Virus record (IMG/VR): IMGVR_UViG_3300021962_006841
Reading direction: 5' to 3' (one strand)
DNA: 64,000 bases
Origin: an uncultured virus (IMG/VR IMGVR_UViG_3300021962_006841)
Taxonomy: Duplodnaviria > Heunggongvirae > Uroviricota > Caudoviricetes
Shown: piece by piece, positions 7,375 to 55,029 of the stretch
Numbering within the stretch: position 1 is the stretch's first letter
How the letters are laid out: each line of letters opens with the position of its first letter
Position numbers and translations under genes: made by a program
Notes under the pieces: generated by a model
Told to the model about the DNA's origin: nothing
The model's input: only the letters and a program-made list of their open reading frames with translations
The model's database searches: none

Positions 7375-8433
7375 TTACCAGACTCTCAAGAGGACAGTGA
7401 ACTCATTCAGTCGGCCATTCATCGGCTTAGCGACAGCCTTAATAGCATCGAACTGCTTGTTGAGTTGAGGCTTAGATGCATTCATTACAACCTTGAGGAA
7501 CTCCTCAGGCTTCCGAAGCTTCTTAGACACACACTGCTCAAGGTCAATGTTCAGAAGGCTTGAACGCTTAAACTGGATGTTGCTACCAACATAGCGGCCG
7601 AGCTGACGGGTCTTTGTATTAAAGACCCAAAGTTGCTCTGAGCCAAGAACCTTCTGAGGATGGATTGAACCAACCTTGAATTCAGTAGACTCCTTCAGGT
7701 ACTTGACCTTCGACAACATCTTCTCGACGTTTGGCTTACGGACCTTACGGACACGAGCAGCCTTCTTAGTTTGTTCAAGCTGGTTGAGGTCAGCCTCCAA
7801 CTTCTCGTAAAATGCAACAAGGACCTTGATAGCCTTCTTACCATAGGCCTCATAACATTCGACAACAGCTGGGTCGCCATCCTTGAGTAGAGCCATCTCG
7901 TTAAAGTTGAACTCAAACGCTTCTCGAATCACGCGAGCGTGGCCAGCCTTACAGCCTTGACCATTCAAGTAGTCATAGATGTTATCATCATATGGCTTGC
8001 CAGCAATGAAGTTATCGATCTGCTCATCGATCCAAGCGACATACGGAGTACAAGACTCCTTCAGACGGTCGCGAATCGAGATGACATTAGTCGGTACAAC
8101 ATCTTCCTCTTCCACATAGGTGGAGGATTCAATTGCCTTCATTGCAAAGGCAATGACACGAGCCTGCTCACCAGTTGCCACACCACGAGATTCCATTCGG
8201 GCAATGGCAGCGATAGCACGAGGCACATCACCATTCGTAGCCTTGGCAATGTCGCTCTTAGAGAACGACTTCTGCTGGGCAAGGAACTGCCGCAACCAAG
8301 TCTTATAGTTGCCATCATCGCTATTGTAATTGTACCAGTTAAGAGCCTCAATGAGGTTCAACTTGGTAGGTTCAGTAAACGTTGGTTCTTGGCCGAGTGC
8401 TCGGGCAAGAGAATCGTTACGCTGCTTTGCCAT
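7375..8433 (-). CDS. conserved T4-like phage hypothetical protein
   Basis: ALNWYNY N-terminus and LWVFNTKTR...KKLRKPEE...NGRLNE C-terminus. Confidence 0.75.
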   Translation of the reverse strand: MAKQRNDSLARALGQEPTFTEPTKLNLIEALNWYNYNSDDGNYKTWLRQFLAQQKSFSKSDIAKATNGDVPRAIAAIARMESRGVATGEQARVIAFAMKAIESSTYVEEEDVVPTNVISIRDRLKESCTPYVAWIDEQIDNFIAGKPYDDNIYDYLNGQGCKAGHARVIREAFEFNFNEMALLKDGDPAVVECYEAYGKKAIKVLVAFYEKLEADLNQLEQTKKAARVRKVRKPNVEKMLSKVKYLKESTEFKVGSIHPQKVLGSEQLWVFNTKTRQLGRYVGSNIQFKRSSLLNIDLEQCVSKKLRKPEEFLKVVMNASKPQLNKQFDAIKAVAKPMNGRLNEFTVLLRVW

Positions 8434-8836
8434 AAATCTTACTTTTTACCTGTGCTATGTGCTTACATTGATTACGGAATTCGAAACCTGTACAAGTGCA
8501 GGACCACTTCCCGCCCTTGGACATTACATTATACACGTTACCCTTACTGCCGGCAACAGTGCATTCAATAGTTAGTAATTTGCTAAATTCAGTCTTGTTA
8601 AGAGCTTTACCTTCTAGGATCTCAAGGTCAATAACCCTATGAGTATAGATCAGTGAGATAGGATGATAAGAGCGACCGGTCTCAACAGCAAACGTGTTAC
8701 CGACCTCGTTCTTCCAGTATACAGGAATCGGCACTACCCTACCTGTATGAGTGTTATCATCGAACTCACGTCCGGCAACGTTGCTCGGATACCGAGTCGT
8801 TACCTTAACGAGAGAACCTATAGAAGGGATCTGCAT
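8417..8836 (-). CDS. SWIM zinc-finger protein
   Basis: GSKGNVY...WSCTCTGFEFRNQCKH. Confidence 0.8.
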   Translation of the reverse strand: MQIPSIGSLVKVTTRYPSNVAGREFDDNTHTGRVVPIPVYWKNEVGNTFAVETGRSYHPISLIYTHRVIDLEILEGKALNKTEFSKLLTIECTVAGSKGNVYNVMSKGGKWSCTCTGFEFRNQCKHIAQVKSKIYGKAA

Positions 8837-8994
8837 TAGCGGACCTTATACTCGCCGTTCCTGTAATCTCGAATGATACGGCGAACTTGAGCAAGCGGAA
8901 TGTTAAGTTCTTCGGCAATGACCTCCTTATCGAGGTGGTCCACAAAGAACATTTCAAGAACCTGCATATCAAGAACCATAGTAGTTTTCATCAT
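8836..8994 (-). CDS. small putative helix-turn-helix protein (not in ORF track)
   Basis: MMKTTMVLDMQVLEMFFVDHLDKEVIAEELNIPLAQVRRIIRDYRNGEYKVR; TAATG overlaps at both ends. Confidence 0.6.
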   Translation of the reverse strand: MMKTTMVLDMQVLEMFFVDHLDKEVIAEELNIPLAQVRRIIRDYRNGEYKVR

Positions 8995-9296
8995 TAACCT
9001 ACGAACTTATCAATCACGCCAACGAGTTCGTGAGCGTAAACAGCGTTGACGATGTTGTCGTGGACGATCTCGACACCCTCGACTCGGTTCTTGCGAACAC
9101 GGAAGAACTGAACCTCATAGAGATCAGGGACAGCGTTGTACTTGACGTACACATAGCCCTTCCAGGGAGTCATGCCTGAAGTCTTGAACTTCAGGCCATC
9201 TTCCATCACCACAAAGTCCTTCGCACCCCAAGCGCAGAGCGCCCAAGCGTCGATTGCTTTGATCTGAGAGAGAATAGTCTTAGCGATATTCATCAC
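8994..9296 (-). CDS. hypothetical early protein
   Basis: Translationally coupled ORF in the early operon. Confidence 0.65.
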   Translation of the reverse strand: MMNIAKTILSQIKAIDAWALCAWGAKDFVVMEDGLKFKTSGMTPWKGYVYVKYNAVPDLYEVQFFRVRKNRVEGVEIVHDNIVNAVYAHELVGVIDKFVG

Positions 9297-9493
9297 GCTT
9301 CCACCTTTGCAAACATCTTACGACCAGCATCCATGAAGATGTTGAATGCAGTGAGGAACTCAATGCCCAACTTGGCTTCTCGGATATACCAAAGAGCACC
9401 ATACCTGTCGATGGTCTCGAGAAGTTCAAGAACACTAACGCCATCTCGCTTGGCTTGCTGTTCAATAATCTCGACTGCTTCGCTGATATTCAT
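9293..9493 (-). CDS. hypothetical early protein
   Basis: Coupled ORF. Confidence 0.6.
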   Translation of the reverse strand: MNISEAVEIIEQQAKRDGVSVLELLETIDRYGALWYIREAKLGIEFLTAFNIFMDAGRKMFAKVEA

Positions 9494-9765
9494 TAGGCAA
9501 CCACCTGCACACGCGGCTCAACATTCTTCTCTTCGGCAAGGTCATCGAAGAAATGATTGCCAGGAAGAGGAGCGACAAAGTAGTCAGGATAGACCTTCTT
9601 GCTATCAATCTTGCCCTGCCAAACTCGCTTGACAGTCTTAGCACGGAACGTGCTATCCATCTCACTGATGCCGACGACGAGGCCGACATAGTAGCAGTCA
9701 TTGACACCGACGAAGTCAAGGCTCTTGACGACGTCACCGATTCGTACTTGTTGTTTGCTTTCCAT
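9493..9765 (-). CDS. hypothetical SH3-like early protein, probably leaderless
   Basis: IGDVVKSLDF...YYVGLV; ATG lies 7 nt after TATAAT. Confidence 0.65.
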   Translation of the reverse strand: MESKQQVRIGDVVKSLDFVGVNDCYYVGLVVGISEMDSTFRAKTVKRVWQGKIDSKKVYPDYFVAPLPGNHFFDDLAEEKNVEPRVQVVA

Positions 9766-9772
9766 GCCGTCC

Positions 9773-9800
9773 ATTATACACTGTTGGTCAATAGATGCAA
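9773..9800 (-). promoter_or_regulatory. sigma70-type early promoter
   Basis: TTGCAT-16-TATAAT. Confidence 0.7.
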
Positions 9801-9818
9801 CAGCAACAGCTCCTTTAG

Positions 9819-9893
9819 AATCAAGGAGTTACACGTGTTTTAAAAACACCTGTAGAATCAGTAAGTTACAGATCCTTAAGAATCAAGGAGTTA
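9819..9893. repeat. three AATCAR-N4-TTA (IHF-consensus-like) boxes
   Basis: AATCAAGGAGTTA 9819-9831, AATCAGTAAGTTA 9856-9868, AATCAAGGAGTTA 9881-9893. Confidence 0.75.
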
Positions 9894-10558
9894 CAAGTCC
9901 ATAGGGAAACTGGCATGGTTTCAATGGTTTCTAGGCCTGGTGTAAAGCATGGAACCTCATAAGACATAAGATGATGGAATGCCTCATGCTTGATTTCGTA
10001 TGGTGGATTCTGACGACCTGACTGGGCAATAATGACAGTTGAGGTTTGACCCAGATCGGCTAGGTAGTTTAAGAGGTCGTCACTCGTCTGCTGGCCATAG
10101 ATAAGATCGGATGCAAAGATAACAGACTGCTCCGCAATCTTGGCTTTGAACAAATCTTTAATGTATGCTGTTACAATTTCATTATTACGATTGCTGTTAA
10201 CAGCAATAGTAAAATCGCTATACACACAACAATCAACACCAATTGAAATCTTGGCTCCTGCTCTCTTGGCAGCAATGGCAACAGTCCCCTGACCTGTTCC
10301 AACATCGTAGACGACTTTATCTTTAACAACAGTTGGATTGTCAAGAATCCATCTACCAAGAGCAACACCACATTCCCAAAGATAGGGCCATTGCCACGAG
10401 TGATGTGCATCTTGGAGTTGTTTCTTAACACCATCATCTTTTTGTTTAAGGCAAAAGAATTCCAGCTCTGGAAGAAGTGGATGTCTTCTCCAAGCAAAGT
10501 TACCTAATAGGTCTTCAACGCTTGGTGTTATAGAAGAGAATTTAGCAGGAATGTCCAT
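9866..10558 (-). CDS. class I SAM-dependent methyltransferase (family 16, lysine-MTase-like)
   Basis: WPYLWECGVAL..W, VYDVGTGQG motif I, ASDLIY. Confidence 0.8.
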   Translation of the reverse strand: MDIPAKFSSITPSVEDLLGNFAWRRHPLLPELEFFCLKQKDDGVKKQLQDAHHSWQWPYLWECGVALGRWILDNPTVVKDKVVYDVGTGQGTVAIAAKRAGAKISIGVDCCVYSDFTIAVNSNRNNEIVTAYIKDLFKAKIAEQSVIFASDLIYGQQTSDDLLNYLADLGQTSTVIIAQSGRQNPPYEIKHEAFHHLMSYEVPCFTPGLETIETMPVSLWTCNSLILKDL

Positions 10559-11472
10559 TCTTCTTTCCTCAAGTTCCAATCATAATTTCTGTCAAAGTAT
10601 TCCTTTTGGGCCTTTAAGTAATTTTCTACAGAGTTCTTTTTAACAACTTCAATTGCATGGTAGAGAATCTTAAAGAATGTGTTGGCATGGCTATTGACAT
10701 CTTCAGTGTAGTTATACATCAAGGCATAATTAGCACAAGTCTCAGGTAATGCAGCAAGAGAAGATGTTACAGTTAAGCATTGAGCTGACATAGCCTCTAG
10801 AGCACATAGGCAACTCGTCTCTTGCCAGATTGATGGGTAGGCAAAAATATGTGCCTTACCAATAGCTGCTCTTAGTTCTTCTTGAGAGACAGAACCATGA
10901 TAGGTCATACTTGGATGCTCTTCAATCTCCTTAAAGAGCTCCTGATACGGAACATCTCTTTCAGCCCAGCCATATAACTTAAAGCTCGAGAACACATCCA
11001 AATGAATATCAGGATGGTACTTTAGCATCTCCTTAAATACTGGTACTAGAATCTCCAAACCTCGGTGAGGCGTTGGATGATAGATCAATCTAATCTTTCC
11101 ATCTGGATCTTGCTTATTAATTAGTTCTGGTTGGATTGGCACAATTGCATTCTTGATTACTACACCTTCTGAATATGGAACACCAAGAACAGTGTTATAC
11201 ATCTGCTGCTGCCAATGGGATACAAATACAATTTTCTTAAATTGCTTTCTATACTCAGGATCCTTTAACTTAGCTGACTCTGGATCCCATGGTAGGTCAT
11301 GCAACCAAAGGATTGGAATCTTATCTGGATTGATTTCCCTAACCCTAGAAGGAATAATTTGAAACTTACTTAGTAGTTCCTTATCAACGTACTGCTCAAG
11401 CCTTTCAGCCATAAGCTCTGTACCACCCCTAGAATTCTTATTTGTTTCATTTCTTTCAATCACTAGTTTCAT
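10528..11472 (-). CDS. glycosyltransferase (GT-B, GT4-like)
   Basis: GGTE, LWLHD, FVSHWQ, HRGLE.L, YPSIWQETSCLCALEAM. Confidence 0.9.
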   Translation of the reverse strand: MKLVIERNETNKNSRGGTELMAERLEQYVDKELLSKFQIIPSRVREINPDKIPILWLHDLPWDPESAKLKDPEYRKQFKKIVFVSHWQQQMYNTVLGVPYSEGVVIKNAIVPIQPELINKQDPDGKIRLIYHPTPHRGLEILVPVFKEMLKYHPDIHLDVFSSFKLYGWAERDVPYQELFKEIEEHPSMTYHGSVSQEELRAAIGKAHIFAYPSIWQETSCLCALEAMSAQCLTVTSSLAALPETCANYALMYNYTEDVNSHANTFFKILYHAIEVVKKNSVENYLKAQKEYFDRNYDWNLRKEEWTFLLNSLL

Positions 11473-12304
11473 TTTCTTCTCTCACTTTGAATTCTGATGT
11501 TTCAATATTTAGTAGCGTTGCTCTCTTTCTAAATTTATTCATTATCAATTGAACTTTATCCTGAAGCTCGGGTGTATTAACAAGAGGCTCCATTTCGTGG
11601 AAAATAATCTTTCCTTCATCTCGTAACTTTTGAATGTAACGTTTATCAGGATGACCTTCAACAAGCATTCCGGCATGAGGGTTAGAGTTGCTACCCTTGA
11701 AGGATGGAACAGGTAAATGAAAACTACTTACTTCATTTACTTCACCATTCATCTCATACTGTACCTTACCTTCGAAGAAATCAAATCCAATAACATGAAG
11801 CTCCTTATACGAGCGGATAATATTTGTAAAATATGCTAATGTCAATGCACCCTGGGATGCTCGTTGATTAATATCGACTGTACCATAAGCAGTTTTAATC
11901 AATGCTCTTGTCTTCTTTATATCACCCATCACGAAGTAGTCTTTATATATCTCAAAATCTTCTTCATAGAAATGTTTGGATATTGTTGTCGTATTTTTCT
12001 TAGAGTCATATACAGATATCTGAGATATATTTAAAACCTGGTATGGTGTTCCCTTAAAATCTGGATAGTGATTGGCTCTCAATATAGAAAGAACCCATAC
12101 ATCTGTTTTACTGCCTAGATGTTCTTTAAACTCAGGCCAGGGGAATCCTTTACCAAGTCTAACTACAACATCAAAGCTGTCTATAAACTCACCATACGGT
12201 TTGTTAAACAAAGAAATCGAATTGCCAACAATGAGAACTCTCTTATTCTGACAGTATCCAATTAATCTATTTTCAAACTTGTCGTTGAGTCTTTTATTCC
12301 ACAT
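11456..12304 (-). CDS. GT29/sialyltransferase-like protein
   Basis: L-sialylmotif-like IVGNS...IDSFDVVVRL...GSKTD, plus GFDFF. Confidence 0.7.
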   Translation of the reverse strand: MWNKRLNDKFENRLIGYCQNKRVLIVGNSISLFNKPYGEFIDSFDVVVRLGKGFPWPEFKEHLGSKTDVWVLSILRANHYPDFKGTPYQVLNISQISVYDSKKNTTTISKHFYEEDFEIYKDYFVMGDIKKTRALIKTAYGTVDINQRASQGALTLAYFTNIIRSYKELHVIGFDFFEGKVQYEMNGEVNEVSSFHLPVPSFKGSNSNPHAGMLVEGHPDKRYIQKLRDEGKIIFHEMEPLVNTPELQDKVQLIMNKFRKRATLLNIETSEFKVREENETSD

Positions 12305-12996
12305 TAGAATCTACCATATTTTTCTTCTACCTTGTGTTTATAGAAATTAAATCTATCGGCAAATTCAACATTCTCATAACCTGGATGCCAGGGGCCTCCA
12401 TCTGTAAAGTGAATTGCCTTTGGATTAACTTCATCATTGTAGTAACCTACAAGATAGTTATATGTATGGGGAATAGAACCAATGTATTGATCATCACACC
12501 AATTAAACTCATGTAGATAACCAGCTGGTGATTCTGAAACAACTTGTGGTGTTAATCTTTTTGTGAATGCATGATCACAATTGAATACCATTAACGAAGA
12601 CCAATTCTTTCTTGGATACCAACTTTGTTTTTGGCCATCCATCTTGAATGGTTTAATTTGATCCTTCTGGATATTGTGTTTAACTACACTAACAGCTTTA
12701 GTTGGATCAATAACATCTAGAAGTTCAAGAGGGTCACAGTTCCAAATAAAGTCACTATCACAAAAGATAGCGTACCCATAAAACCCCTTGAGGTAGGGCG
12801 TTAAGAATCTTGTAAATGCAAACTCTGTACTACCTTCGGCTTGCTCCCTCCAGAAGTATCCTCTACTTACAACAGAAGTTAGATGTATTGTCTCAACTCG
12901 TATTTTTGAATAGTCTTCAATGGAGAGCCTGCAGGTATCAGCTACACTTGTCTGCTTACTATCATGTCCGATAAAGAGTTTTACCTTCTCTTTCAC
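12304..12996 (-). CDS. glycosyltransferase (GT-A, GT8/CDI-like)
   Basis: STEFAFTRFL.P, CDSD (DxD), YPRKNWSSLM, HFTDGGPW. Confidence 0.88.
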   Translation of the reverse strand: MKEKVKLFIGHDSKQTSVADTCRLSIEDYSKIRVETIHLTSVVSRGYFWREQAEGSTEFAFTRFLTPYLKGFYGYAIFCDSDFIWNCDPLELLDVIDPTKAVSVVKHNIQKDQIKPFKMDGQKQSWYPRKNWSSLMVFNCDHAFTKRLTPQVVSESPAGYLHEFNWCDDQYIGSIPHTYNYLVGYYNDEVNPKAIHFTDGGPWHPGYENVEFADRFNFYKHKVEEKYGRF

Positions 12997-13789
12997 TTGA
13001 CCTCTCCAGTATTGACATCAGTGTAGTATCCGCTTTGTACAGCATCATAATGCCAAATGATAAAGTTAGGAGAATTGTAAAAACGTAGTGATGTGTTGCA
13101 TGTTGGTTTCTTACCAACTGCTTCTAACTCTTTCCATCTTTCTTTGGAGACACTTGTTGGCTCTACCCATTCATTGTCGTTGTTTTGAATTAACAAAAAT
13201 GATCGGCCGCCACAATATTGCTTGATGGCGTCTACCCACCAATTCAAATCCTTAATGGTTGCATGGAGATTCTCTCCATCCTTAAACATTTTCTTAGCTG
13301 GGTTGGAGGAAATTGAGAATATGATTGTGCCATCTTCTTTGGTATAGTTACCAATCTCTGTTAGAACCTGAGGCACAAACTCTTCTGGCACATGCTCCAT
13401 AACATCAGCACAGCATGTAATATCAAACACATACCAGTTGGTGGTTTAGTTGCATACTGGGGTACGGCTGGGTCATAAGAATAATAGCATTGAATCATGC
13501 CATTTAATCTACCAAGTAGTGTCTTATTGCCGTGAGCTGAAAGGGGCATGTATGTGTGGATAGCCTTTCCACACCCATAGTCAAGTAATGTTACTGCCCT
13601 ACCTTTAGCATTGATTACTTGTTGAATGTAAGGTGGGAACTTCTTACCAAGCTGGGAACCATCAAACAAAGTTTTACCTTTGGATGGGTCTATTTCGTTG
13701 GTGTGGAGATTACCATCAAGCGCCAAGTACTTCTCGGCAGCAGTATGGATTCCCTGGTATCTTAAAATATACTCTTCTAATTTGTTCAT
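12993..13789 (-). pseudogene. class I SAM methyltransferase split by a frameshift at about 13428-13432
   Basis: Motif I LLDYGCGKA is in 13361-13789; FDITCCADVMEHVPE is in the other frame (12993-13430). Deleting TG from ATGTGTTT fuses them into 264 aa. Confidence 0.7.
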
Positions 13790-14641: not shown

Positions 14642-14649
14642 TATTTATA
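14642..14649 (-). promoter_or_regulatory. T4-type late promoter
   Basis: TATAAATA on the minus strand, upstream of a gene start. Confidence 0.7.
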
Positions 14650-15631
14650 TTGAATGTGGGGTATCAGAGAATATAACCTTAACATTATCTGGCATCGCAT
14701 TAACAATAGCGTTAATTAAACCAAGGCGGCTGCCTGCATCATGCTCCTTGGAGTCTTTAAGATATTTGTATGAACCAACTTGGTCTAGGATATCGATTTT
14801 ATTGACAATAAGTTGTGTAATATCATTTACTCTTGCAGCATATGCCATCTTATCAACATCAATCCAATTACACTTTCTCGGACGACCAGTTGTGGCGCCA
14901 AATTCTTGTCCTAGAATCTGAACTCTCAACAACTCTTCACAATGCATACCAAAAGGCTTTGTACCAACATATGTTTCATATGCCTTCGCAACACCAATAA
15001 TTTTTCTGATCTTTCTTGGTGAAACACCATTTAAAATAACAGAACCAATAGTACAATGGGAAGAAGTAACAAAAGGATAATCACCCCAATCAATATCCAA
15101 AGCAAAGCCCTGAGCACCTTCGGCAAGAACGCGAGCGCCAGTAAGAAGATCAAGACTATCCACAATGGTGAAATTATCAGTGTTAATAAGCTGATCGCCA
15201 ATACGAGTGCCAGTGCGTCCATACTTGTTTCTATAGGCCGGGCCTATTCCTTGTTTAGTTGTTCCTATAGCTGTATCGTTATTGTCTTCTGCTAAATGTT
15301 CATCAGTAACTAGATGAGCTCTCTTATCAATAAACAAAAGACGATCAGTCTTGAACCCATTTGCCTTGAGATAGGCAATTTCTTCTTCAAGCTTCCTTAC
15401 GTTTACTACACAGCCAATACCAATCAAAGATCGGATGCCGTAGAGAACTCCAGCTGGCACTTGATGTGTGACAATCTTCTCACCATTGTGGTAGATAGTA
15501 TGTCCAGCATTTGAGCCACCATTATATCGGAGAACCAGGTCGTACTCTCCACTACTTAGTAAAGAATGAGTAACCTTACCTTTCCCAGTATCACCTGACT
15601 GGAGGTCTACTACGGCATCACAATAAATCAT
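14645..15631 (-). CDS. purA: adenylosuccinate synthetase (short form)
   Basis: GDTGKGK, GGSNAGHT, IGTTKQGIGPAY, EGAQG, YPFVTSS, EFGATTGRPR, NKID. Confidence 0.92.
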   Translation of the reverse strand: MIYCDAVVDLQSGDTGKGKVTHSLLSSGEYDLVLRYNGGSNAGHTIYHNGEKIVTHQVPAGVLYGIRSLIGIGCVVNVRKLEEEIAYLKANGFKTDRLLFIDKRAHLVTDEHLAEDNNDTAIGTTKQGIGPAYRNKYGRTGTRIGDQLINTDNFTIVDSLDLLTGARVLAEGAQGFALDIDWGDYPFVTSSHCTIGSVILNGVSPRKIRKIIGVAKAYETYVGTKPFGMHCEELLRVQILGQEFGATTGRPRKCNWIDVDKMAYAARVNDITQLIVNKIDILDQVGSYKYLKDSKEHDAGSRLGLINAIVNAMPDNVKVIFSDTPHSI

Positions 15632-15872: not shown

Positions 15873-16499
15873 CTAGTGATAAAAGATATGGTTACCAATT
15901 TGTCTAACCACCTTCTTAGTATTTGACCAAGCCGGGTCGACATAGGTAGCATGAAAGAACTTGGCTTGACCAACAACATTATATGACCTTTTGTTGATCA
16001 AAATGTTTTCGGCAATCTTTAGAGATTCCCTCCATGCAGGACCAGATCGAGCACGGAGGTCATTCTCACATACCCAAGAGAATTGACAGACGCCTCTGTA
16101 CTTTTGGTAAACAACACCACATACAGATCTAGGGAACTGATTACTCTTTACTCTGTTCATTGTAACTTGAGCAACAGCAAGTTTACCCTCACGAGGTTCT
16201 GAGCCAGCCTCGTAATAGATGTTCTTTGCAAGGCATTCTACCTCGCGCATAACTTTTTGCTTTTTGTCATAGGAGAGCTCAAGGAACTCCATGCGGCTGT
16301 TCATGTCCTCCATTTGAGCCATAAGAAAGATGTTTCTCTCTTGCTCAGCTTCGAGTTTGTCCATTGATTCAAAATGTATTGTGAACGGTACATAAAGAAA
16401 AAAGAACAAAGCTGCAAATAGTCCACCAAACCTAATAAACAAGTTATGGTTTCTATCAAAATAAGCTTCAATGCGATCTAAAATTTCTACTGCCTTCAT
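15873..16499 (-). CDS. SleB/Hydrolase_2 cell wall hydrolase with N-terminal TM and coiled coil
   Basis: CLAKNIYYEA, AVAQVTMNRV, CGVVYQ, CQFSW, FHATYV.P.W, IGNHIFY. Confidence 0.9.
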   Translation of the reverse strand: MKAVEILDRIEAYFDRNHNLFIRFGGLFAALFFFLYVPFTIHFESMDKLEAEQERNIFLMAQMEDMNSRMEFLELSYDKKQKVMREVECLAKNIYYEAGSEPREGKLAVAQVTMNRVKSNQFPRSVCGVVYQKYRGVCQFSWVCENDLRARSGPAWRESLKIAENILINKRSYNVVGQAKFFHATYVDPAWSNTKKVVRQIGNHIFYH

Positions 16500-16526
16500 G
16501 TTGTTACCTCCATTTATGCAGTTGGA

Positions 16527-16560
16527 AGAAAAAGGCGGACGGTTTTTACACCGCCGCCTC
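16527..16560 (-). terminator. intrinsic terminator after the tmRNA coding piece
   Basis: Minus strand AGGCGG-CGGTGTAAAAACCGT-CCGCCT then TTTT. Confidence 0.7.
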
Positions 16561-16858
16561 TAACCTTTCTGTTACCAAGCGGTTAACTCTGGAACCTATA
16601 CTGCAATTAAGCAGCTAGAGCCATTTCGTAGTAATCGTCATTTGCGTTTACTTTTTTTGCGCTGATTAAGTCAGTCGCCTCACTGGTAGCCGTCGGTTTA
16701 TTACTTGCCCTGTCGAAGCCATTTCTTCCCCGCAGAAGCACACTATGTGTCCGGTACAATCCGGCTCTTAACTCTTTCGAGTCAGTGTGCTTTTGGTGGA
16801 GAAGGTGGGAGTTGAACCCACGTCCAAGACACCTTTAGTCGTCAGTTTACTACCATTA
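16530..16858 (-). ncRNA. ssrA: circularly permuted (two-piece) tmRNA
   Basis: Acceptor piece with T-arm GTGGG-TTCAACT-CCCAC ends CTTCTCCACCA at 16794. The intervening segment is 16732-16793. The coding piece starts GGGGAAG at 16731 (G3.U70). The tag ANDDYYEMALAA-stop is at 16645-16607. Confidence 0.92.
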
Positions 16859-16861
16859 ACC

Positions 16862-17026
16862 TTATGCAACGATTCCGTACTGTTCGCGCAGAATCTTTTT
16901 ATATGGTCCACCTTCTTCAATCAACTTACTAACAAGCATCAGCTTGGCAGCAAGATCATTATCACCACTCTTTTCTAGAGCAGCAACAATAGTACGAAGG
17001 TCCACATTATCGATAGGAAGATCCAT
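16862..17026 (-). CDS. small conserved T4-like phage protein (not in ORF track)
   Basis: MDLPIDNVDLRTIVAALEKSGDNDLAAKLMLVSKLIEEGGPYKKILREQYGIVA; GAGG SD. Confidence 0.7.
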   Translation of the reverse strand: MDLPIDNVDLRTIVAALEKSGDNDLAAKLMLVSKLIEEGGPYKKILREQYGIVA

Positions 17027-17050
17027 TTGTTCAACCTCATCATTACCAAA

Positions 17051-17087
17051 TATTTATCATTATACAGGATTCAAATGGTCAAGTCAA
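17051..17087 (-). promoter_or_regulatory. overlapping sigma70 promoter and late-like promoter driving the small ORF and tmRNA
   Basis: TTGACT-17-TATAAT followed immediately by GATAAATA. Confidence 0.65.
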
Positions 17088-17596
17088 CCGTTTAACACTT
17101 TAGCAACAGCGTTAACAACTGCAGCAATTCTTCCAATATCGCGGAGTTGTTCAACTGTCATGCCTTCTTTCTTTAAGGTATCATAGTGAGCCTTGACACA
17201 GAAGTGGCATTTGCCCACGATTGAGGCTGCTAGAGAATAAGCTTCAAAATTTAACTTAGTTGTACCACCATGGCTTATGATAGCATTCATACGAAGGTTA
17301 GCTGGAAGACCCTTCAGTGCAGAGTCCTCAGCCATTTCAATATATGGATACCAAACATTGTTTTGAGCCATAGTGGCAGCAGCTGTCAAGGCGGCGACAC
17401 ATTCCTTATTGTCTTCCATACCTTGTTCAATTACAGCTAGTACCTTTCCATTACCAGTTGCCATTGCTGCAGCGACGGCACATCCATGTGCCACGACTGG
17501 ATCTAATGAGCTGCGTAAGAGAACAGCGTCAAGATTCAACTTTGTGTCTTTAGCGTATTCTGGCAATACTTCTTTAATTGTTTCTACCCAGCTCAT
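17084..17596 (-). CDS. ahpD: alkylhydroperoxidase AhpD
   Basis: PEYAKDTKLNL, MAQNNVWY, LRMN, SIVGKCHFCVKAH (CxxC). Confidence 0.92.
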   Translation of the reverse strand: MSWVETIKEVLPEYAKDTKLNLDAVLLRSSLDPVVAHGCAVAAAMATGNGKVLAVIEQGMEDNKECVAALTAAATMAQNNVWYPYIEMAEDSALKGLPANLRMNAIISHGGTTKLNFEAYSLAASIVGKCHFCVKAHYDTLKKEGMTVEQLRDIGRIAAVVNAVAKVLNG

Positions 17597-18009: not shown

Positions 18010-18155
18010 ATTTCTTTTTTATGTCCACAATGTGGGCAATACCATGTCCTTGGTTTCCAATTGTCGTCAGTTGCAAAACTCCACCAGAGCTTACATTGGG
18101 AGCACAAGAAGTGCCAAATGACTTCTTTGAATGGAGGTTTTGCTTCTGCTTCCAT
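18006..18155 (-). CDS. small zinc-ribbon protein
   Basis: CSQC...CPHCG; start overlaps the ahpC stop. Confidence 0.65.
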   Translation of the reverse strand: MEAEAKPPFKEVIWHFLCSQCKLWWSFATDDNWKPRTWYCPHCGHKKEI

Positions 18156-18730
18156 TAGGCCGCGTTTAAAGTTGCTTCGCCAACCTGACGGTTGCACTGG
18201 CAAAGTTCACCAGTCTGCAATGCATCGAGAATGCGAAGCGTTTCATCGGCATTACGGCCAACAGCTAAGCTGTTAACTGTAACATGCTGAATAACGTTGT
18301 TTGGATCAACAATAAATGTTGCTCTTAGAGCAGCACCCGCTGGGTTGAAGAACACACCAAGGTCAGAAACAAGACTTAGGTTTTCTACACCATAGTCAGC
18401 TGGTTCACGCTTCGTGTCAGCGAAGAACCAAGAAGTTGTCTTCTTTAAACCTTCATGTGCATTCTTCCATGCTAGCTTACAGAATTCATTGTCTGTAGAA
18501 CCAATTAGAAGAACTGCATCTCTATCAGCGAAGTCATTATTCAGCTTATCGTAAGCTACAATCTCTGTTGGGCAGACGAATGTAAAGTCCTTAGGATAGT
18601 AAACAATTACCTTCCACTTACCTTCGAATGACTTTTCTGTGATGTCTTCGAAAGCACCGTCTGGTGCTAGGGCACCAGGCTTAACACCTGTAATTACAAA
18701 CGGATTTAACTTATCACCTACTGTCTTCAT
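18155..18730 (-). CDS. ahpC: 2-Cys peroxiredoxin AhpC
   Basis: YYPKDFTFVCPTEI, RATFIVDP, VGRNADE.LR.LDALQ, LCQCN. Confidence 0.95.
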   Translation of the reverse strand: MKTVGDKLNPFVITGVKPGALAPDGAFEDITEKSFEGKWKVIVYYPKDFTFVCPTEIVAYDKLNNDFADRDAVLLIGSTDNEFCKLAWKNAHEGLKKTTSWFFADTKREPADYGVENLSLVSDLGVFFNPAGAALRATFIVDPNNVIQHVTVNSLAVGRNADETLRILDALQTGELCQCNRQVGEATLNAA

Positions 18731-18851
18731 TTTGTGTTTTCTCCTTAATGAGTTCCTTCTCAAGTTTACCAAATTCACGTCTATAAACCGTTTTACCCTT
18801 ATCAGGCGATTCATAGATGTATTTCTTTTCTTCTTGTTTTTGTTCTGTCAT
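18714..18851 (-). CDS. small phage protein with YIYESPD.GKTVYRR motif (not in ORF track)
   Basis: MTEQKQEEKKYIYESPDKGKTVYRREFGKLEKELIKEKTQNEDSR. Confidence 0.6.
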   Translation of the reverse strand: MTEQKQEEKKYIYESPDKGKTVYRREFGKLEKELIKEKTQNEDSR

Positions 18852-18860
18852 ATGTATACC

Positions 18861-18926
18861 ACTCTACTTTAAAAATATAGGCATATCCAATTCGTTGTTT
18901 CTTACAAACTGATAGAGATTTTCTAT
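18861..18926 (-). promoter_or_regulatory. ahpC operon promoter with OxyR-like box
   Basis: Minus strand ATAG-N7-CTAT-N7-TAAG-N7-GAAT abutting TTGGAT-18-TAGAGT. Confidence 0.55.
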
Positions 18927-19696
18927 TAGCCTATTCCCATCTCTTTTCTAATCTTAGTGGCAGAGATAGCTTGGATATCCTCAGGCAACTCTATCTTACT
19001 GATCGAATATCCTACATCCCGGCCATAAGAAATGTCAACGATATTAGGTACCCAAATGATCTGAAACTTACCAAGATAATTAGACAACTTCTTTAGGATA
19101 TATGCTTCTGTCTCTCTATGGCCAAATGGATTCTTTTCATCCTCAGGCATCTTTCTAACAAAGATAGCAACTTGACCAGTCTTCTTTAGAGCCTCCTCAA
19201 ACAATGCCTTATGACCATCGTGGAATGGCTGATAGCGACCCATCATCTGAACTGTTGGTTTAGTCCAATCAAAGTGCTCGCTAACAATCATATAGGCAAT
19301 ATCAAGAAGTTCATCTTCATAGTCCCAGCTATCGATCCAAAACATGAACTCTTTTGGTCGCTGGAAGATCTTATTTGTATCCTCAAATCTACCTTCCTTA
19401 ATTGTATCCATCCAAACGATAATATCACCTGCAAACAAGGACTGTGTCTCGTATGTTGGACATACGAAATCACAAATAGCATAACGACCTTGCTTATTAG
19501 AAGCTGCAGCAAAATCTTTCATTCTTTTTGCTTGCCGCATTCTACCTTCTGGTGAGAAGTCCCAATCATTATGCAATTGTCTTACCTTATCAGCATTATA
19601 CCAATCAACATTTTCACCAAGCAATGCTGCTAGTTTTTCAGCAAATGTCGTTTTACCAGAGCCTGGTAGGCCCATTACTAATATTGTACATGCCAT
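18926..19696 (-). CDS. cysC: adenylyl-sulfate kinase-like domain fused to a HIGH-family nucleotidyltransferase
   Basis: GLPGSGKTT, NADKVR...DWDFS.EGR.RQ; C-terminal GRYQPFHDGH and ISATKIR. Confidence 0.75.
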   Translation of the reverse strand: MACTILVMGLPGSGKTTFAEKLAALLGENVDWYNADKVRQLHNDWDFSPEGRMRQAKRMKDFAAASNKQGRYAICDFVCPTYETQSLFAGDIIVWMDTIKEGRFEDTNKIFQRPKEFMFWIDSWDYEDELLDIAYMIVSEHFDWTKPTVQMMGRYQPFHDGHKALFEEALKKTGQVAIFVRKMPEDEKNPFGHRETEAYILKKLSNYLGKFQIIWVPNIVDISYGRDVGYSISKIELPEDIQAISATKIRKEMGIG

Positions 19697-21764: not shown

Positions 21765-21824
21765 ACTATACGCACATTTGGTCAATAGGTCAACAACTAA
21801 ATTCCTAATAGAATCAAGGAGTTA
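21765..21824 (-). promoter_or_regulatory. sigma70 promoter with upstream IHF-like box
   Basis: TTGACC-17-TATAGT; AATCAAGGAGTTA at 21812-21824. Confidence 0.7.
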
Positions 21825-22266
21825 CATCAATCCCAGCTTGCCGCAGCGTTTTATCCACTTCTGCATCGACAACTCTCTGCCGTAATTCCGTCGTAGAAAA
21901 TGTATGTTCTCTTTTATTAAAGTAGAACTTAATACCACGCTCAATGCATTCGTTACGACCGGTGAATTCTCTATGCTCGTATTCGTTACCCAGAATGCGG
22001 ATATTAATTGGATATGCTAAGAGAATATCAACAAGATCTTTTTCTGTAGCATATACCACAACTTCATCAACATACTTACATGCCTGGAGCTGAACATATC
22101 TCTCGAAAATACTTTGCACTGGCTTATTCTTTTCCTTTCTATCAATTGTTGGATCTGTTTGTAAACCAACAATTAAATGGTCACATTGAGCCTTTGCTTC
22201 CTTCAACATAATAACATGTCCAGCGTGGAACAGATCAAATGTTGAACATGTGAATCCTACTTTCAT
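21814..22266 (-). CDS. tagD: glycerol-3-phosphate cytidylyltransferase-like (TagD family)
   Basis: FDLFHAGH, VGLQTDP, YVDEV, R.H.FSTT.LR. Confidence 0.85.
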   Translation of the reverse strand: MKVGFTCSTFDLFHAGHVIMLKEAKAQCDHLIVGLQTDPTIDRKEKNKPVQSIFERYVQLQACKYVDEVVVYATEKDLVDILLAYPINIRILGNEYEHREFTGRNECIERGIKFYFNKREHTFSTTELRQRVVDAEVDKTLRQAGIDVTP

Positions 22267-22658
22267 AATCCAATATTCCTTCTAGTAAATTTCACCAAAA
22301 TGTTGTCATTGTAGTATTTGTCTGACTCTAGAACCTCATTGGCAAACTGCAACTTAGCTTCCCAGTAGTTTGTTTCGCCTCGTGTCTTGCATAGCCGGAC
22401 GATTCTTCTAACAAATTTATCTTTACCAAACTTCTCAACATCTTCTAGCATACGAGGAGAAGACCCATAATAGTCTTTCCAATCAGACTCCTTACGTGTC
22501 TTTCTTTTTTTGCCTTTGACTTGTTTGGTACCGGCCTTTGTAAAATACTTACGACCTAGATACAGCTTGCTGTTTTCTAAACATTCAATCTCATAGATGA
22601 ATCCATAATGCCCTTTGACATCCTCATCCGTAAGCTCATGACCATTGTATAACCACAT
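22263..22658 (-). CDS. GIY-YIG-type (Seg-like) endonuclease
   Basis: GFIY...YLGRK, ESDWKDYYGSS, YYN.NI. Confidence 0.75.
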   Translation of the reverse strand: MWLYNGHELTDEDVKGHYGFIYEIECLENSKLYLGRKYFTKAGTKQVKGKKRKTRKESDWKDYYGSSPRMLEDVEKFGKDKFVRRIVRLCKTRGETNYWEAKLQFANEVLESDKYYNDNILVKFTRRNIGL

Positions 22659-22684: not shown

Positions 22685-23482
22685 CTAATTGTTAATCTTT
22701 AGTGGTTCTACTTTTAAACCTTTCATGAATCCAGGTGACACGCTTGCATTATAGGCAGCAGGTCGACCTTGAATAGTTGATATTCTATCACCAACTACAC
22801 ATACCACTGGTGGAGGGTCCATTACACATCTTGCAATACCAAAATTGTCATGGATCGAAAGAATACCATCAATTGTAGTATTAACTCCACCAAACTCTGC
22901 TGTATAATACCCCTGCATCCTATCAATCATATATCTTGCCATACCAGGTGTGATGGCATAGGCATGGGTACCTTCAAACTTATTAATGTCCATGAATTCA
23001 ATGGGGTCATTAGGACGCTGATAGTCGTCAGCTTTATTAACTCTGTACCCAAGCATTACTAGCTTATTATCTGGAATCTCGGTATCATACAAATAATCTT
23101 TCACTATTGCATCATGCTCAAATACGCAACACGCGTATGGTTGTTCTGCAATTGTGTGCCAGAGTTTAAGATGGCTTGCAGTACACCCCATTTCATTATT
23201 TTTGACAACCCAATGAAATCCAGTTTCTTCATCAAGATCCCTAGAGGCAGCATTTTCAATGCCCTTCCACAATGTATATGGTAGACCATACTTCTTACAA
23301 GATGCAGCACATTCATTAGCATACTCAATAGATTCAGGCTTATCAATGTAAATGATATAGGCATGTCTGATCTTGCCTGTATCGCCTGGTGCCTGTCTAT
23401 TAGATCTGTCTAGTTCCATGCTATCACCACCAATAACTTTATCGCCTTTGATCTTAACGCCTTTGACTGTAACAGAACCCAA
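22685..23482 (-). CDS. glycosyltransferase family 25-like
   Basis: EMGCTASHLKLW, VFEHDA, GTHAYAITP..A. Confidence 0.8.
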   Translation of the reverse strand: MGSVTVKGVKIKGDKVIGGDSMELDRSNRQAPGDTGKIRHAYIIYIDKPESIEYANECAASCKKYGLPYTLWKGIENAASRDLDEETGFHWVVKNNEMGCTASHLKLWHTIAEQPYACCVFEHDAIVKDYLYDTEIPDNKLVMLGYRVNKADDYQRPNDPIEFMDINKFEGTHAYAITPGMARYMIDRMQGYYTAEFGGVNTTIDGILSIHDNFGIARCVMDPPPVVCVVGDRISTIQGRPAAYNASVSPGFMKGLKVEPLKINN

Positions 23483-36855: not shown

Positions 36856-38025
36856 TTACACAGCAAAGCCAGGTTTGTATACTGTCTTTCCCTTTTCCAT
36901 CACGGCAGTCAAAATCTGCTTTCTTTGCTTACCAGAGGAAGCATAGCTAGCATGGACCCAACCACTATTTGGACCTTCTTTAGGATTATAAAATTCTAGA
37001 ATGACTTGGTCAAAGTCTAGATTATCAGCAACCCATTTTGCAAGATCAAGATTTGACATACCATCAATCTCAAAGTCTACAGCTTCACCATTGCAGTGTT
37101 GTGACTTAGCAGAGCCACCAACAGCCGCATTTAGCTTTGGACCTCTATAAGCTGAATTAATTTGCACTGGCTTGCCAAAATGCTTTCTAACTGGCTCTAG
37201 AATGTTTTTACATACTAGGGTTAGGTTATGCATATGAGTTGGGTTTGGTGTATTATCAATACCCTTTCTTGTTGCCGTTTCTGATCTTGTTAGTTCCTTC
37301 AGGGAGAAGTGTTCTGACAAGTTACCAGGCTTAATAACGCCTGGTGCTGCAGCTGGCTTGGCAACTGCTACAGCTGGTTTAGCTGACGCAGGAGCTGCAT
37401 CAACCTTAACACCCTTTAATAGGCTATAGTACTTCTTTGTCTTAGTTGATCTATCATCTAGACCATGTGTACCACCATTGATCTTCTTTGTGATAGAAAG
37501 GATTGTAGCATCGCTAACACCCTTGTCACAAATATCCCAAAGCTTATTCTTATCAAAGAACCAGATGGCTGATTCAAAGATATACTCTGTAGCAACTAGA
37601 TCTGGATTTGAAAGAATCTCTGGCTTACCAAGATAGGTAGCAAGAGCTTTATAGTTATCTTTACCAGTTAGCTGGAGAGCACCACGGCCTCTATATTTCC
37701 AGCCATCACCTGAGGATTCTGGACCGTTGCCCATTCTGCCACCATATACTTTGTTGGCAATCTTTTCTGGCTTTCTCTCATATGCAACAGCCATCTGATC
37801 TGTTGGGAAGTATTTGCCAAAGATACCACGAAGGCCTTTAGCACCATAGTTTAAGTTCTCTTGAAACTTAGCAAAGCCACCAGACTCGTGGTTAGTCTGA
37901 GCAAAGAAGTGTGCTGCCCTCTCAGGCGTCATCTTATAATACTTCATTGCTGCTTTCAGAACTTCAACACCAAACTTAGGGTCTGGCGCAACTCCAATCT
38001 TATTGCAAAACTTCTCAATACTCAT
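36856..38025 (-). CDS. endolysin: GH19 glycoside hydrolase fused to peptidase M15A
   Basis: HFFAQ..HESGG..ENLNY, YRGRGALQLTGK.NY, INGG..GL.DR; Ala/Pro linker; SAYR...SQHCNGEAVD...WVHAS. Confidence 0.9.
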   Translation of the reverse strand: MSIEKFCNKIGVAPDPKFGVEVLKAAMKYYKMTPERAAHFFAQTNHESGGFAKFQENLNYGAKGLRGIFGKYFPTDQMAVAYERKPEKIANKVYGGRMGNGPESSGDGWKYRGRGALQLTGKDNYKALATYLGKPEILSNPDLVATEYIFESAIWFFDKNKLWDICDKGVSDATILSITKKINGGTHGLDDRSTKTKKYYSLLKGVKVDAAPASAKPAVAVAKPAAAPGVIKPGNLSEHFSLKELTRSETATRKGIDNTPNPTHMHNLTLVCKNILEPVRKHFGKPVQINSAYRGPKLNAAVGGSAKSQHCNGEAVDFEIDGMSNLDLAKWVADNLDFDQVILEFYNPKEGPNSGWVHASYASSGKQRKQILTAVMEKGKTVYKPGFAV

Positions 38026-53656: not shown

Positions 53657-54898
53657 TTAGAACGGGATGTCATCAGCATACGGATCGGCATTGTTTGCCG
53701 CCGTCACTGGGTCGTTGTAGGTGTTGAGGTCAACTTCAGCATCGACCTTGGTGTAGAGGTCTAAGAACGATGTCTTAGTCTCATGGTCAAAGCGGTTCAA
53801 ACAAAGTTCCACAGCCTCGAGGCGGTTACGGAAGATCGCAAACGCACTAACAATATGAACAAGTCGCCGAGTAGAGATAACTTCGTTTGTAGCACCGTCA
53901 GCAAACGACTTACGGATTACTCCAGCCCACTTAACGAGGTTCTCGGCAAACTTCTCGTCCATGCAATTGAACTTATGCATGTTACGAGTCAAGATCTTGA
54001 GTTCCGTCTTCTCGGGCGGATAGTCCTGCTCAAACGTAATCGGGAAGCGCTCAAGGAACGCCTCGTTCATAACCTTGGTACCGATGAAGCGACCATCATC
54101 GCTACCCTTACCCTTTGTATTAGCAGTGGCGAAGATATTGAAGCCGACAGCAGGGAAGACCTTCTCGCCAGTCTTCTTGATATGGTAGGGCTTACCCTCC
54201 ATAATTGACTGCAAGCACATGATCTTCGTAGCATTAAGATCACACTCGTCCAAGATTAGAATTGCACCACGACGCATTGCAGTTAGGACAGGACCTTCGC
54301 GATAGACGATTGACCCATCGACAAGAGTGTTACCACCAACGAGGTCATCCTCATCAGTCTCTTCCGTAATGTTAACACGGATGCACTCACGCTTCAGCTT
54401 AGCACAAGCCTGTTCGATCGATAGAGTCTTACCGTTACCAGACAAGCCAGTGATGAACACAGGATAAAAGATCTTCGAGTCGATGATCTTAGCAATCTTA
54501 GAGAACGGACCAAACTCAACGTAGGTTGCGTCCTTCGATGGAATAAGATTCTCAACAAGAGCGGCAAGGTTCTGCTTACGGTTGATTGGAGTCACAGTGG
54601 CGACCATTGCAACAGCCTGGTCAGGTTCGACCTGAGTGTTGGCAAACATCGATGGCTCAAGATCAACAGGGCCAAGTTTTTCTCGCTTGGATGGCTTCGT
54701 GATAGAAGCAGTGGTCGAATAAGAACCTCGACCAACATTTCGGCTCTTGTCGTTCAAGAACCAATAGGGAATAGGGAATCCCTTCTCGCCAGCAAGTTCG
54801 AGAACCTGCGAGCGGCTAACAGTCTGACCAAACCGAACGGTCAGGTCATCTACAAACTGACGCTTGGCGTTAGCGTCATAAAATCCAGTCTTCGACAT
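53657..54898 (-). CDS. cobS: CobS/MoxR-type AAA+ ATPase
   Basis: GLSGNGKT, RVNIT.ETDEDDL.GG, ILDE, ATANTKGKGSDDGRF.GT, NEAFLERF, ISTRRL. Confidence 0.9.
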   Translation of the reverse strand: MSKTGFYDANAKRQFVDDLTVRFGQTVSRSQVLELAGEKGFPIPYWFLNDKSRNVGRGSYSTTASITKPSKREKLGPVDLEPSMFANTQVEPDQAVAMVATVTPINRKQNLAALVENLIPSKDATYVEFGPFSKIAKIIDSKIFYPVFITGLSGNGKTLSIEQACAKLKRECIRVNITEETDEDDLVGGNTLVDGSIVYREGPVLTAMRRGAILILDECDLNATKIMCLQSIMEGKPYHIKKTGEKVFPAVGFNIFATANTKGKGSDDGRFIGTKVMNEAFLERFPITFEQDYPPEKTELKILTRNMHKFNCMDEKFAENLVKWAGVIRKSFADGATNEVISTRRLVHIVSAFAIFRNRLEAVELCLNRFDHETKTSFLDLYTKVDAEVDLNTYNDPVTAANNADPYADDIPF

Positions 54899-54930
54899 AA
54901 CAAACATACCTCTTTTTACGGTAGGAGCAT

Positions 54931-55029
54931 CATCCAACAATCTACGGGTCTAGGCAACTGGGGTTTCATGTGATTTAGTAAAGTCGTTATGAATCAACAA
55001 GTTATAGACCCTTACAAATCAATAGGTTA
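54931..55029 (-). promoter_or_regulatory. sigma70-like promoter with two IHF-like boxes
   Basis: TTGCCT-17-GATGAT; AATCAACAAGTTA 54992-55004 and AATCAATAGGTTA 55017-55029. Confidence 0.55.

Follow-up and report, generated by a model that had tools for sequence, protein, structure and literature searches.

A probably functional, circularly permuted tmRNA gene of beta-proteobacterial type in an uncultured T4-like aquatic myophage

Results

Identity of the gene

The window, by which we mean the whole 64-kb stretch of DNA analyzed here, comes from an uncultured virus and carries one tRNA-like gene, called by ARAGORN as a permuted tmRNA on the minus strand (16516–16886) with an intact tag, ANDDYYEMALAA. 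tmRNA is the RNA that frees stalled ribosomes. The order of its parts is permuted: on the minus strand, the T arm and the CCA, which ends at 16794, precede G1 at 16731. When the 64-kb window was scanned with the covariance models of Rfam release 15 (cmscan, with the lower-scoring overlapping clan match suppressed), the only families above cut-off anywhere in it were RF04321 (tmRNA_permuted), matched over the full model length with 141.8 bits against a cut-off of 47 (E = 7.4e-28), and RF01850 (beta_tmRNA), matched over model positions 1–331 with 128.7 bits against a cut-off of 84 (E = 6.7e-39). The latter was the best-scoring permuted subtype model above cut-off for the gene. Subtyping of 20 sampled viral relatives returned 17 beta and three alpha types.

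That the locus holds a phage-encoded, circularly permuted two-piece tmRNA, as the initial annotation had proposed, is supported by these two independent detectors, by covariation and by conserved synteny in phage contigs. Its further suggestion that the permutation might have arisen independently was not upheld. The existing beta_tmRNA model matches the gene from end to end, and because both the gene and the 17 relatives are of the beta type, the permutation is, to judge from sequence, the known beta type, inherited rather than independently acquired.

Genomic context

Of the 91 non-overlapping ORFs of the window (selected greedily), 82 lie on the same strand. PHROG and Pfam scans identified a T4-type DNA polymerase, UvsX, DnaB, a primase and RNase H, together with ribonucleotide reductase, thymidylate synthase, PhoH, a CobS-like ATPase and cell-wall hydrolases. 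The DNA polymerase reaches at best 49% identity, to Synechococcus myophages of the Kyanoviridae, and a virion protein reaches at best 51.5% identity. A neighboring gene bears the PHROG label PurZ; this label was rejected, as ordinary PurA structures match the gene far better. A blastn search of a 601-base region found nothing at E 1e-5 among 50,697 isolate-phage records. The gene alone, searched at E 0.01, matched 82 records, mostly at tRNA-Ala genes and only through a T-arm stretch of about 35 nt, and none of the 82 covered 80% of it.

The nearest record, virus contig G001 (63 kb, with a CheckV completeness of 38%, from which a full phage of about 165 kb is estimated), contains an identical copy of the tmRNA, and a homologue of the cell-wall hydrolase (56–91% protein identity) lies directly downstream of the tmRNA in 5/5 related contigs. 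Because the ORF content is that of a phage, the copy in G001 is identical and the synteny with the hydrolase is kept despite protein divergence, the tmRNA gene is a stable, vertically kept part of the phage lineage; the same observations rule out a host flank or an assembly chimera. On the other side of the gene, the stop codon of a small ORF lies 5 nt ahead of the first paired tmRNA base, and the promoter-like sequence upstream of this ORF is the probable source of the tmRNA precursor transcript.

A Pfam domain scan found no SmpB among 82 ORFs of the window, nor was SmpB found in any of five records (G001 and four large contigs with related tmRNAs), three of which are 96–100% complete; in a control, the search detected the family in 10 genomes. 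Since no SmpB was found in the window or in the five records, the RNA would have to work with host SmpB, and we assume that it is compatible with host SmpB and AlaRS. No integrase was detected in the PHROG scans of 52 and 20 window ORFs or in the Pfam scan of 82. A permuted tmRNA was found in none of the five isolates nearest by polymerase or structural protein (Sf-CH5, ACG-2014a, S-SRM01, S-RIM8 and S-WAM2), so the gene is dispensable in that phage group.

Table 1 Features of the tmRNA locus, in window coordinates.
Feature	Position	Strand	Basis or detail
Sigma-70-like promoter TTGACT-17-TATAAT	17059..17087	−	11/12 matches; upstream of small ORF
Small upstream ORF, 54 aa, function unknown	16862..17026	−	PHROG match (phrog_38428)
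Complete circularly permuted tmRNA gene	about 16856–16529	−	ARAGORN and Rfam
Predicted acceptor piece, ~63 nt	16794..16856	−	Rfam alignment begins at 16854; 5′ end uncertain
Distal cross-piece helix, 5′ strand TGGTAGT	16849..16855	−	Pairs with 16684–16690
Proximal cross-piece helix, 5′ strand TGTCTTG	16825..16831	−	Pairs with 16706–16712
T arm	16805..16821	−	GTGGG 16821–16817, loop TTCAACT, CCCAC 16809–16805
Acceptor 3′ strand	16794..16804	−	CTTCTCC 16804–16798, A73 16797, CCA 16796–16794
Intervening segment (62 nt), predicted to be excised	16732..16793	−	Fold and covariation
Closing stem of intervening segment	AAGCACAC 16792–16785 / GTGTGCTT 16743–16736	−	95.4% paired
GAAA-loop hairpin in intervening segment	16784–16779 / 16774–16769	−	Compensatory changes
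CCGG hairpin in intervening segment	16764–16761 / 16754–16751	−	Compensatory changes
Predicted coding piece, ~200 nt	16529..16731	−	G1 16731 to end of terminator T run
Acceptor 5′ strand GGGGAAG	16725..16731	−	100% paired in 77-sequence set and clade
PK1 region	16659..16684	−	Hairpin and weak second stem
Tag reading frame	16607..16645	−	GCA resume codon 16645, ANDDYYEMALAA, TAA 16609–16607
3′ pseudoknot	16560..16589	−	GAG 16589–16587 / CTT 16579–16577; TTAACC 16586–16581 / GGTTAG 16565–16560
Intrinsic terminator	16528..16558	−	GC-rich hairpin 16558–16534, then T run
Cell-wall hydrolase (Pfam Hydrolase_2; PHROG endolysin)	15873..16499	−	Downstream neighbor of tmRNA gene

Covariation among viral relatives

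To collect relatives, we searched IMG/VR with a degenerate pattern of the permuted layout (T loop, CCA, a gap of 40–70 nt, then GGGG..G...TGG.TTCGAC), which identified 97 loci. ARAGORN called a permuted tmRNA in 94–95 of the 97, and the set contained 78 unique sequences. The alignment used below has 77 rows, namely the window and 76 unique relatives; one truncated locus (L049) and one identical to the window (L067) were left out. Across the 77 sequences the named structure was 88.0% paired, compared with 71.3% in column shuffles and 41–59% when the structure was slid along the alignment, and double-sided changes numbered 493 against 139.5 expected; 0/500 shuffles did as well. The invariance of GGGG, G3.U70 and CCA in this set is imposed by the search pattern, and it is the variable positions that carry the evidence.

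Within a 10-sequence clade the full anatomy could be assessed. Here 92.3% of the structure was paired against 80.9% after shuffling, a value reached in 0/500 shuffles, and 30 pairs had double-sided changes compared with 12.7 in shuffles. Covariation in the clade extends to the PK1 hairpin, 3′ pseudoknot and terminator, each with compensatory changes. At the protein level the tag is kept in relatives through synonymous codons (AAT/AAC, GAC/GAT and CTA/CTT). Among the 78 unique viral tags, 68 begin with AND and 74 end in AA; the 12-residue length of the window's tag recurs in 8 of the 78, and 39 have 10 residues.

The closest relatives form an IMG/VR clade (L092, L016, L076, L061/L069, L024/L025/L077, L080 and L060) with 72–98% identity to the window gene over 277–366 nt. 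Their tags are the same or nearly so (ANDDYYEMALAA, ANDDVYEMALAA, ANDDSFTPMALAA) and their genes occupy the same place upstream of a hydrolase gene, but several have a wholly different intervening segment, with a CCACCAC/GTGGTGG hairpin.

Anatomy of the RNA

Every helix and feature described in the initial annotation is present on the minus strand, exact to the base (Table 1). The acceptor piece comprises the 5′ strands of both cross-piece helices, the T arm, the acceptor 3′ strand, A73 and an encoded CCA. It is joined to the coding piece by a 7-bp acceptor stem (pairs CG, TA, TA, CG, TG, CG and CG), in which the G3.U70 wobble is made by G16729 and T16800. Both cross-piece helices show compensatory changes in the 77-sequence set and in the 10-member clade: the proximal helix is 96.5% paired in the former, the distal helix has 74.0% of its cells paired, each has double-sided changes in 6/7 pairs, and each is 98.6% paired in the clade. 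The T arm is 100% paired with double-sided changes in 3/5 pairs, its loop and two pairs being fixed by the search pattern.

The PK1-like element claimed to precede the tag is seen best in its hairpin (16678–16671/16665–16659), in which A16675 is bulged and which is 97.1% paired in the clade, with double-sided changes in 3/7 pairs. The second stem (16684–16682/16671–16669) is merely 3 bp long in the window copy and shares A16671 with the hairpin; across the 77 sequences the two PK1 elements are 64–66% paired. Downstream, the tag frame and the terminator fall where they had been placed, and between them is a 3′ pseudoknot whose first stem is 100% paired in the clade. In its second stem the four core pairs are 92.5% paired, all with double-sided changes in the clade, as have 5/7 pairs of the terminator stem.

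The intervening segment

The 62-nt segment between the two pieces, with its closing stem, also has the coordinates first given for it. Seven of the eight pairs of the closing stem have double-sided changes among the 77 sequences, and one relative (L076) has compensatory changes in the GAAA-loop and CCGG hairpins alike. The segment has a minimum free energy of −22 kcal/mol (z = −3.68), and 0/200 shuffles fold as well.

Its pattern of descent differs from that of the mature parts. Over 2,926 pairs of genes the mean identity is 56% for spacers vs 67% for mature parts, yet in 80 pairs the spacers are at least 85% identical, and in 74 of these 80 the spacers are more similar than the mature parts, whose identity is below 80% in 41. 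Examples are L023/L090 (spacer 100%, mature parts 74%), L072/L089 (97% and 61%) and L016/L028 (90% and 66%). Close relatives of the window (L061, L080, L060 and L024) have a quite different spacer, and the spacer family of L024 includes the distant L097. Clustering of the spacers of the 77 genes gave 15 families (49 sequences) and 28 singletons, and the window's tag type was found with four spacer families.

We mapped the spacer-family labels onto a tree of the mature parts, built from the full 77-row alignment after removal of the spacer columns. The labels required 23 changes, where the minimum, with every family a single clade, is 14 and shuffled labels gave a mean of 36.8 (range 32–39 in 200 shuffles); the mature parts are themselves mosaic, so that a single tree is a rough model of their history. 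Five families, picked after the pairwise identities had been seen, were tested for monophyly by the AU test. A single clade was rejected for F0 (p 0.007), for F1, the window's family (p 0.010), and for F5 (p 0.028), and was not rejected for F3 (p 0.165) and F11 (p 0.194). As for the spacer being a free-standing element, a pattern of the window-type core had four matches, and 4/4 lay inside tmRNA genes already found; that idea was discarded.

Expression, host and habitat

Contigs on the tmRNA region were present in 4/4 freshwater RNA runs from four studies. These are assembled contigs, which do not show RNA ends and may include DNA. One contig (16529–16725) covers the predicted coding piece from the terminator onward, stopping 6 nt before G1, and a contig from a second study is also bounded at 16725, a boundary 6 nt inside the predicted 5′ end. 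Three contigs bridge the intervening segment (16691–16948, 16580–16824 and 16696–16858), so that an uncut form, or contaminating DNA, is present; one extends from 16948 into the tmRNA gene and may be of DNA origin. These contigs are a weak hint that cut and uncut forms both exist. Gaps in the cover at 16300–16528 and over most of 16949–17100 carry no meaning, and depths are not comparable. A further candidate, record 6 of X19, matched the window over 33 nt only and was then unlike it, and was set aside as coming from another organism.

A scan of bacterial genome contigs with a pattern of the clade's 5′ piece (GGGG..G..ATGGCTTCGAC.GGGCA) gave eight loci. According to ARAGORN, two Synechococcus single-cell contigs carry a permuted tmRNA of the cyano type (tag ANNIVRFSRQAAPVAA) and three loci carry one-piece tmRNAs; the remaining three, among them a third, truncated Synechococcus contig, gave no call. 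None of the eight resembles the window gene beyond 26–41 nt, and the scan found no bacterial genome with the clade's 5′ piece within a beta-type gene. The beta type suggests a host among betaproteobacteria with a two-piece tmRNA, although such inference can fail, as it does for the phage Melnitz discussed below. At least half of the sampled gene words were present in 14 runs from aquatic metagenomes, and the 20 runs in which the sequence recurs came from 13 studies; their habitat labels (freshwater, plankton, estuary and marine) are a loose indication that the phage is aquatic.

Discussion

A probable ribosome-rescue RNA

We consider it very probable that the gene is a functional permuted ssrA of beta-proteobacterial type in an uncultured T4-like aquatic myophage; anatomy and conservation let us infer a ribosome-rescue function with high confidence. 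By analogy with the two-piece tmRNA of Caulobacter and with general tmRNA biology, one precursor would be transcribed, probably starting from the promoter at 17087–17059 and including the small upstream ORF, and would end at the terminator (16558–16528). Host tRNA-processing enzymes would excise the structured 62-nt segment, with RNase P cutting at G16731 and 3′ trimming to the CCA at 16794, and the resulting acceptor (~63 nt) and coding (~200 nt) pieces would stay associated through the 7-bp acceptor stem and both cross-piece helices. Host AlaRS would charge the RNA through G3.U70 and A73, and host SmpB and EF-Tu would bring it to stalled ribosomes, where translation would resume at the GCA at 16645 and append ANDDYYEMALAA, a ClpXP-type degradation tag. 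The phage may benefit in that ribosomes are kept free, or truncated proteins are recycled, while host transcripts are being degraded.

The RNA could instead be a decoy or a means of retargeting that competes for SmpB and stalled ribosomes against the tmRNA of the host. In that role it might weaken a host response relying on trans-translation, or its different tag, with an extra E-M before ALAA, might alter the fate of the tagged protein. A phage that brings no SmpB would have to share that of its host, and a 12-residue tag is a minority length among the viral genes. The tag frame is, however, intact and conserved, with the AND start and ALAA end that are typical of degradation tags, and covariation keeps the parts for normal function; the tag, PK1 and 3′ pseudoknot would be superfluous in a pure decoy. 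We judge a decoy role unlikely.

Another origin would be the chance capture of a host ssrA, as through imprecise excision of an ancestor that had integrated at ssrA; the gene would since have been carried without function for the phage. Host ssrA is a common integration site, with fragments found in prophages (PMC9004378), and the lack of the gene in the five nearest isolates would also suit a passenger. Such a passenger would hardly be expected to remain full length with compensatory changes in its helices and synonymous changes in its tag, or to be retained at one genomic position while the protein encoded next to it diverged to 56% identity; nor was a close bacterial source found in our scan, or an integrase among the scanned ORFs of the window. 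We regard this origin as very unlikely. Still less credible is that the sequence serves as an attP, an attachment site for integration into host ssrA. Although tmRNA genes are frequent integration targets (PMC9004378, PMC11915505), a 3′ fragment would suffice for attachment, whereas here the permuted gene is whole and has its promoter, tag and terminator. The phage is T4-like, no integrase was detected in the 64 kb, and the bacterial sequences that match the 5′ piece most closely belong to unrelated tmRNAs.

Relation to known tmRNAs

The initial annotation had taken phage tmRNAs to be mostly one-piece, and on this premise it overstated the novelty of the gene. A 2021 survey of isolates, covering 18,146 phage genomes and published in 2022, found tmRNAs in 402 of them, with 133 unique forms, 53 of which are two-piece, and 50 of these 53 are marine or aquatic (PMC9004378). 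The forms tabulated there as 'Permuted' include those of the Synechococcus myophages S-CRM01, S-SSM7, S-CAM1 and S-CAM3, and also of pelagimyophages and phiCbK-like Caulobacter phages (PMC9004378). The tmRNA database paper from which RF04321 originates includes 79 sequences from bacteriophages and counts 11,946 permuted genes (PMC11915505). The window gene is thus a clean further example of a class already described in many aquatic phages. T4-like aquatic phages often carry two-piece tmRNAs that depend on host SmpB, and the window adds a well-resolved example. It is useful for annotation because the gene lacks a cultured representative and blastn finds no match to it among isolate phage genomes, and it may serve to test what advantage a phage draws from encoding a ribosome-rescue RNA.

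The nearest described parallel is the T4-like marine myophage Melnitz, which infects Methylophilales and has a two-piece ssrA (PMC9004378). Like the window phage, Melnitz and the pelagimyophages Mosig and HTVC008M are non-integrative T4-like aquatic myophages with a complete permuted tmRNA (PMC9004378). The Melnitz gene lies directly downstream of an early promoter (PMC9004378), a placement that the promoter at 17087–17059 suggests for the window gene as well. The two differ in type: the Melnitz ssrA groups with the alphaproteobacterial lineage in the phylogeny of that paper, carries a glutamine riboswitch and exemplifies a phage tmRNA whose type can differ from that of the host (PMC9004378), whereas the window gene is matched best by the beta model, and no riboswitch family, of the Melnitz glutamine type or other, reached its Rfam cut-off in the 64-kb window. 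The one-piece tmRNAs of other phages (cluster C mycobacteriophages, and the tag-less DS6A) are also phage-borne and reliant on host partners, but their gene order is the standard one or the tag is missing, in contrast to the permuted order and full tag seen here.

The window gene shares its gene order and tRNA-like domain with the cellular genes of RF01850, as well as both cross-piece helices, the PK1 hairpin ahead of the tag, the single 3′ pseudoknot, whose loop is of the CUUGGUAACAGAAAG type, and the terminator; the start of its intervening segment also resembles the model consensus. It differs from them in being phage-borne, in its 12-residue tag with the E-M insertion, in the weak second stem of PK1, and in the intervening segment, where at one point the cmscan alignment has 35 nt against 2 in the model. 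Its score of 128.7 bits is well below that of the best viral relatives, which reach 162.8 bits.

A possibly exchangeable spacer

The spacer may prove of greater importance than the gene itself. Its distribution is most simply read as the outcome of phage tmRNA genes recombining at their conserved flanks, together with selection for a spacer that can fold. A stronger version, in which the intervening segment is a selected, structured RNA module exchanged as a cassette between diverged phage tmRNA genes, is possible but in our view doubtful; ordinary recombination at conserved flanks could give the same mosaic. Such a module may direct or time the processing of the precursor, or may be set free as a small RNA that has a separate role. 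If spacers are indeed conserved and exchangeable, the processing of two-piece tmRNA precursors is under selection in a manner undescribed in the portions of the literature searched. In those portions of the two-piece tmRNA literature we found no description of such spacer families; the oddities of intervening sequence that the tmRNA database paper records are of another kind, namely a tRNA-Ala gene and a repetitive element (PMC11915505).

Spacer families and mature-RNA relatedness

Fifteen sequence families cover the spacers, the segments intervening between the two tmRNA pieces, of 49 of the 77 viral permuted tmRNA genes compared (that of the window, whose spacer lies at 16732-16793 on the minus strand, and those at loci L002-L098 from IMG/VR), and the groupings they define cross-cut those given by relatedness of the mature RNA. 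Spacer identity reached at least 85% in 80 of the 2,926 gene pairs, and in 74 of these 80 the mature parts, taken without the spacer columns, were less alike than the spacers themselves. When the spacer family of the window was constrained to a single clade on the mature-RNA tree, this arrangement was rejected (AU p = 0.010).

A 26-nt pattern in the 5' piece is common to the phage clade and three Synechococcus single-cell-genome contigs (L100, L102, and L105), but the likeness between these contigs and the phage tmRNA is confined to the 5' end. The genes called by ARAGORN in two of the three contigs are ordinary cyano-type permuted tmRNAs with the tag ANNIVRFSRQAAPVAA; in the truncated contig L102, it called no gene.

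Genes around the tmRNA unit

Genes in the surroundings of the tmRNA unit and elsewhere in the window
Feature	Coordinates	Strand	Remarks
Sugar-handling genes	10528-12304, 18926-19696, 21814-22266, 22685-23482	-	loose cluster
ORF matching C-terminal half of methyltransferase family phrog_24759	12993-13430	-	profile 112-197
ORF matching N-terminal half of phrog_24759	13361-13789	-	profile 5-109
Adenylosuccinate-synthetase-like protein	14645-15631	-	328 aa; PHROGs label PurZ-like, phrog_1211
Hydrolase_2 (SleB-like) cell-wall hydrolase	15873-16499	-	adjoins tmRNA gene
Carboxymuconolactone-decarboxylase-family protein	17084-17596	-	directly upstream of tmRNA unit
AhpC/TSA peroxiredoxin	18155-18814	-	upstream of tmRNA unit
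SegE-type GIY-YIG homing endonuclease	22263-22658	-	Pfam PF19835, E 1.5e-38
Endolysin-like protein	36856-38025	-	389 aa, two-domain; second, separate cell-wall hydrolase

The decarboxylase-family and peroxiredoxin genes, both situated immediately upstream of the tmRNA unit, are probably oxidative-stress auxiliary genes. In T4-like phages, homing endonucleases of the SegE type stimulate gene conversion at nearby sites. The sugar-handling cluster, which comprises group-1, family-29, and family-25 glycosyltransferases, a kinase, and a cytidylyltransferase-like protein, may have a role in modification of DNA or of the cell surface.

The adenylosuccinate-synthetase-like product matched ordinary PurA structures with an E-value of about 1e-60, as compared with only 1e-15 to 1e-21 for the solved PurZ structures; we therefore rejected its PurZ-like label as a sign of a 2-aminoadenine genome. 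The match is split over two stretches, and the protein is approximately 100 residues shorter than PurA. The gene is a shortened PurA-type auxiliary gene. The two ORFs that carry the halves of phrog_24759 overlap, and the methyltransferase gene is either split or frameshifted, or contains a sequencing error.

No tRNA gene was identified by ARAGORN across the 64-kb window of this large T4-like phage with a tmRNA; in several related contigs (L010, L021, L040, L043, and L087), tRNA genes immediately adjoin the tmRNA. The G+C content is 46-47% at 8001-10000 and 54001-56000, as compared with about 37-42% in the rest of the window.
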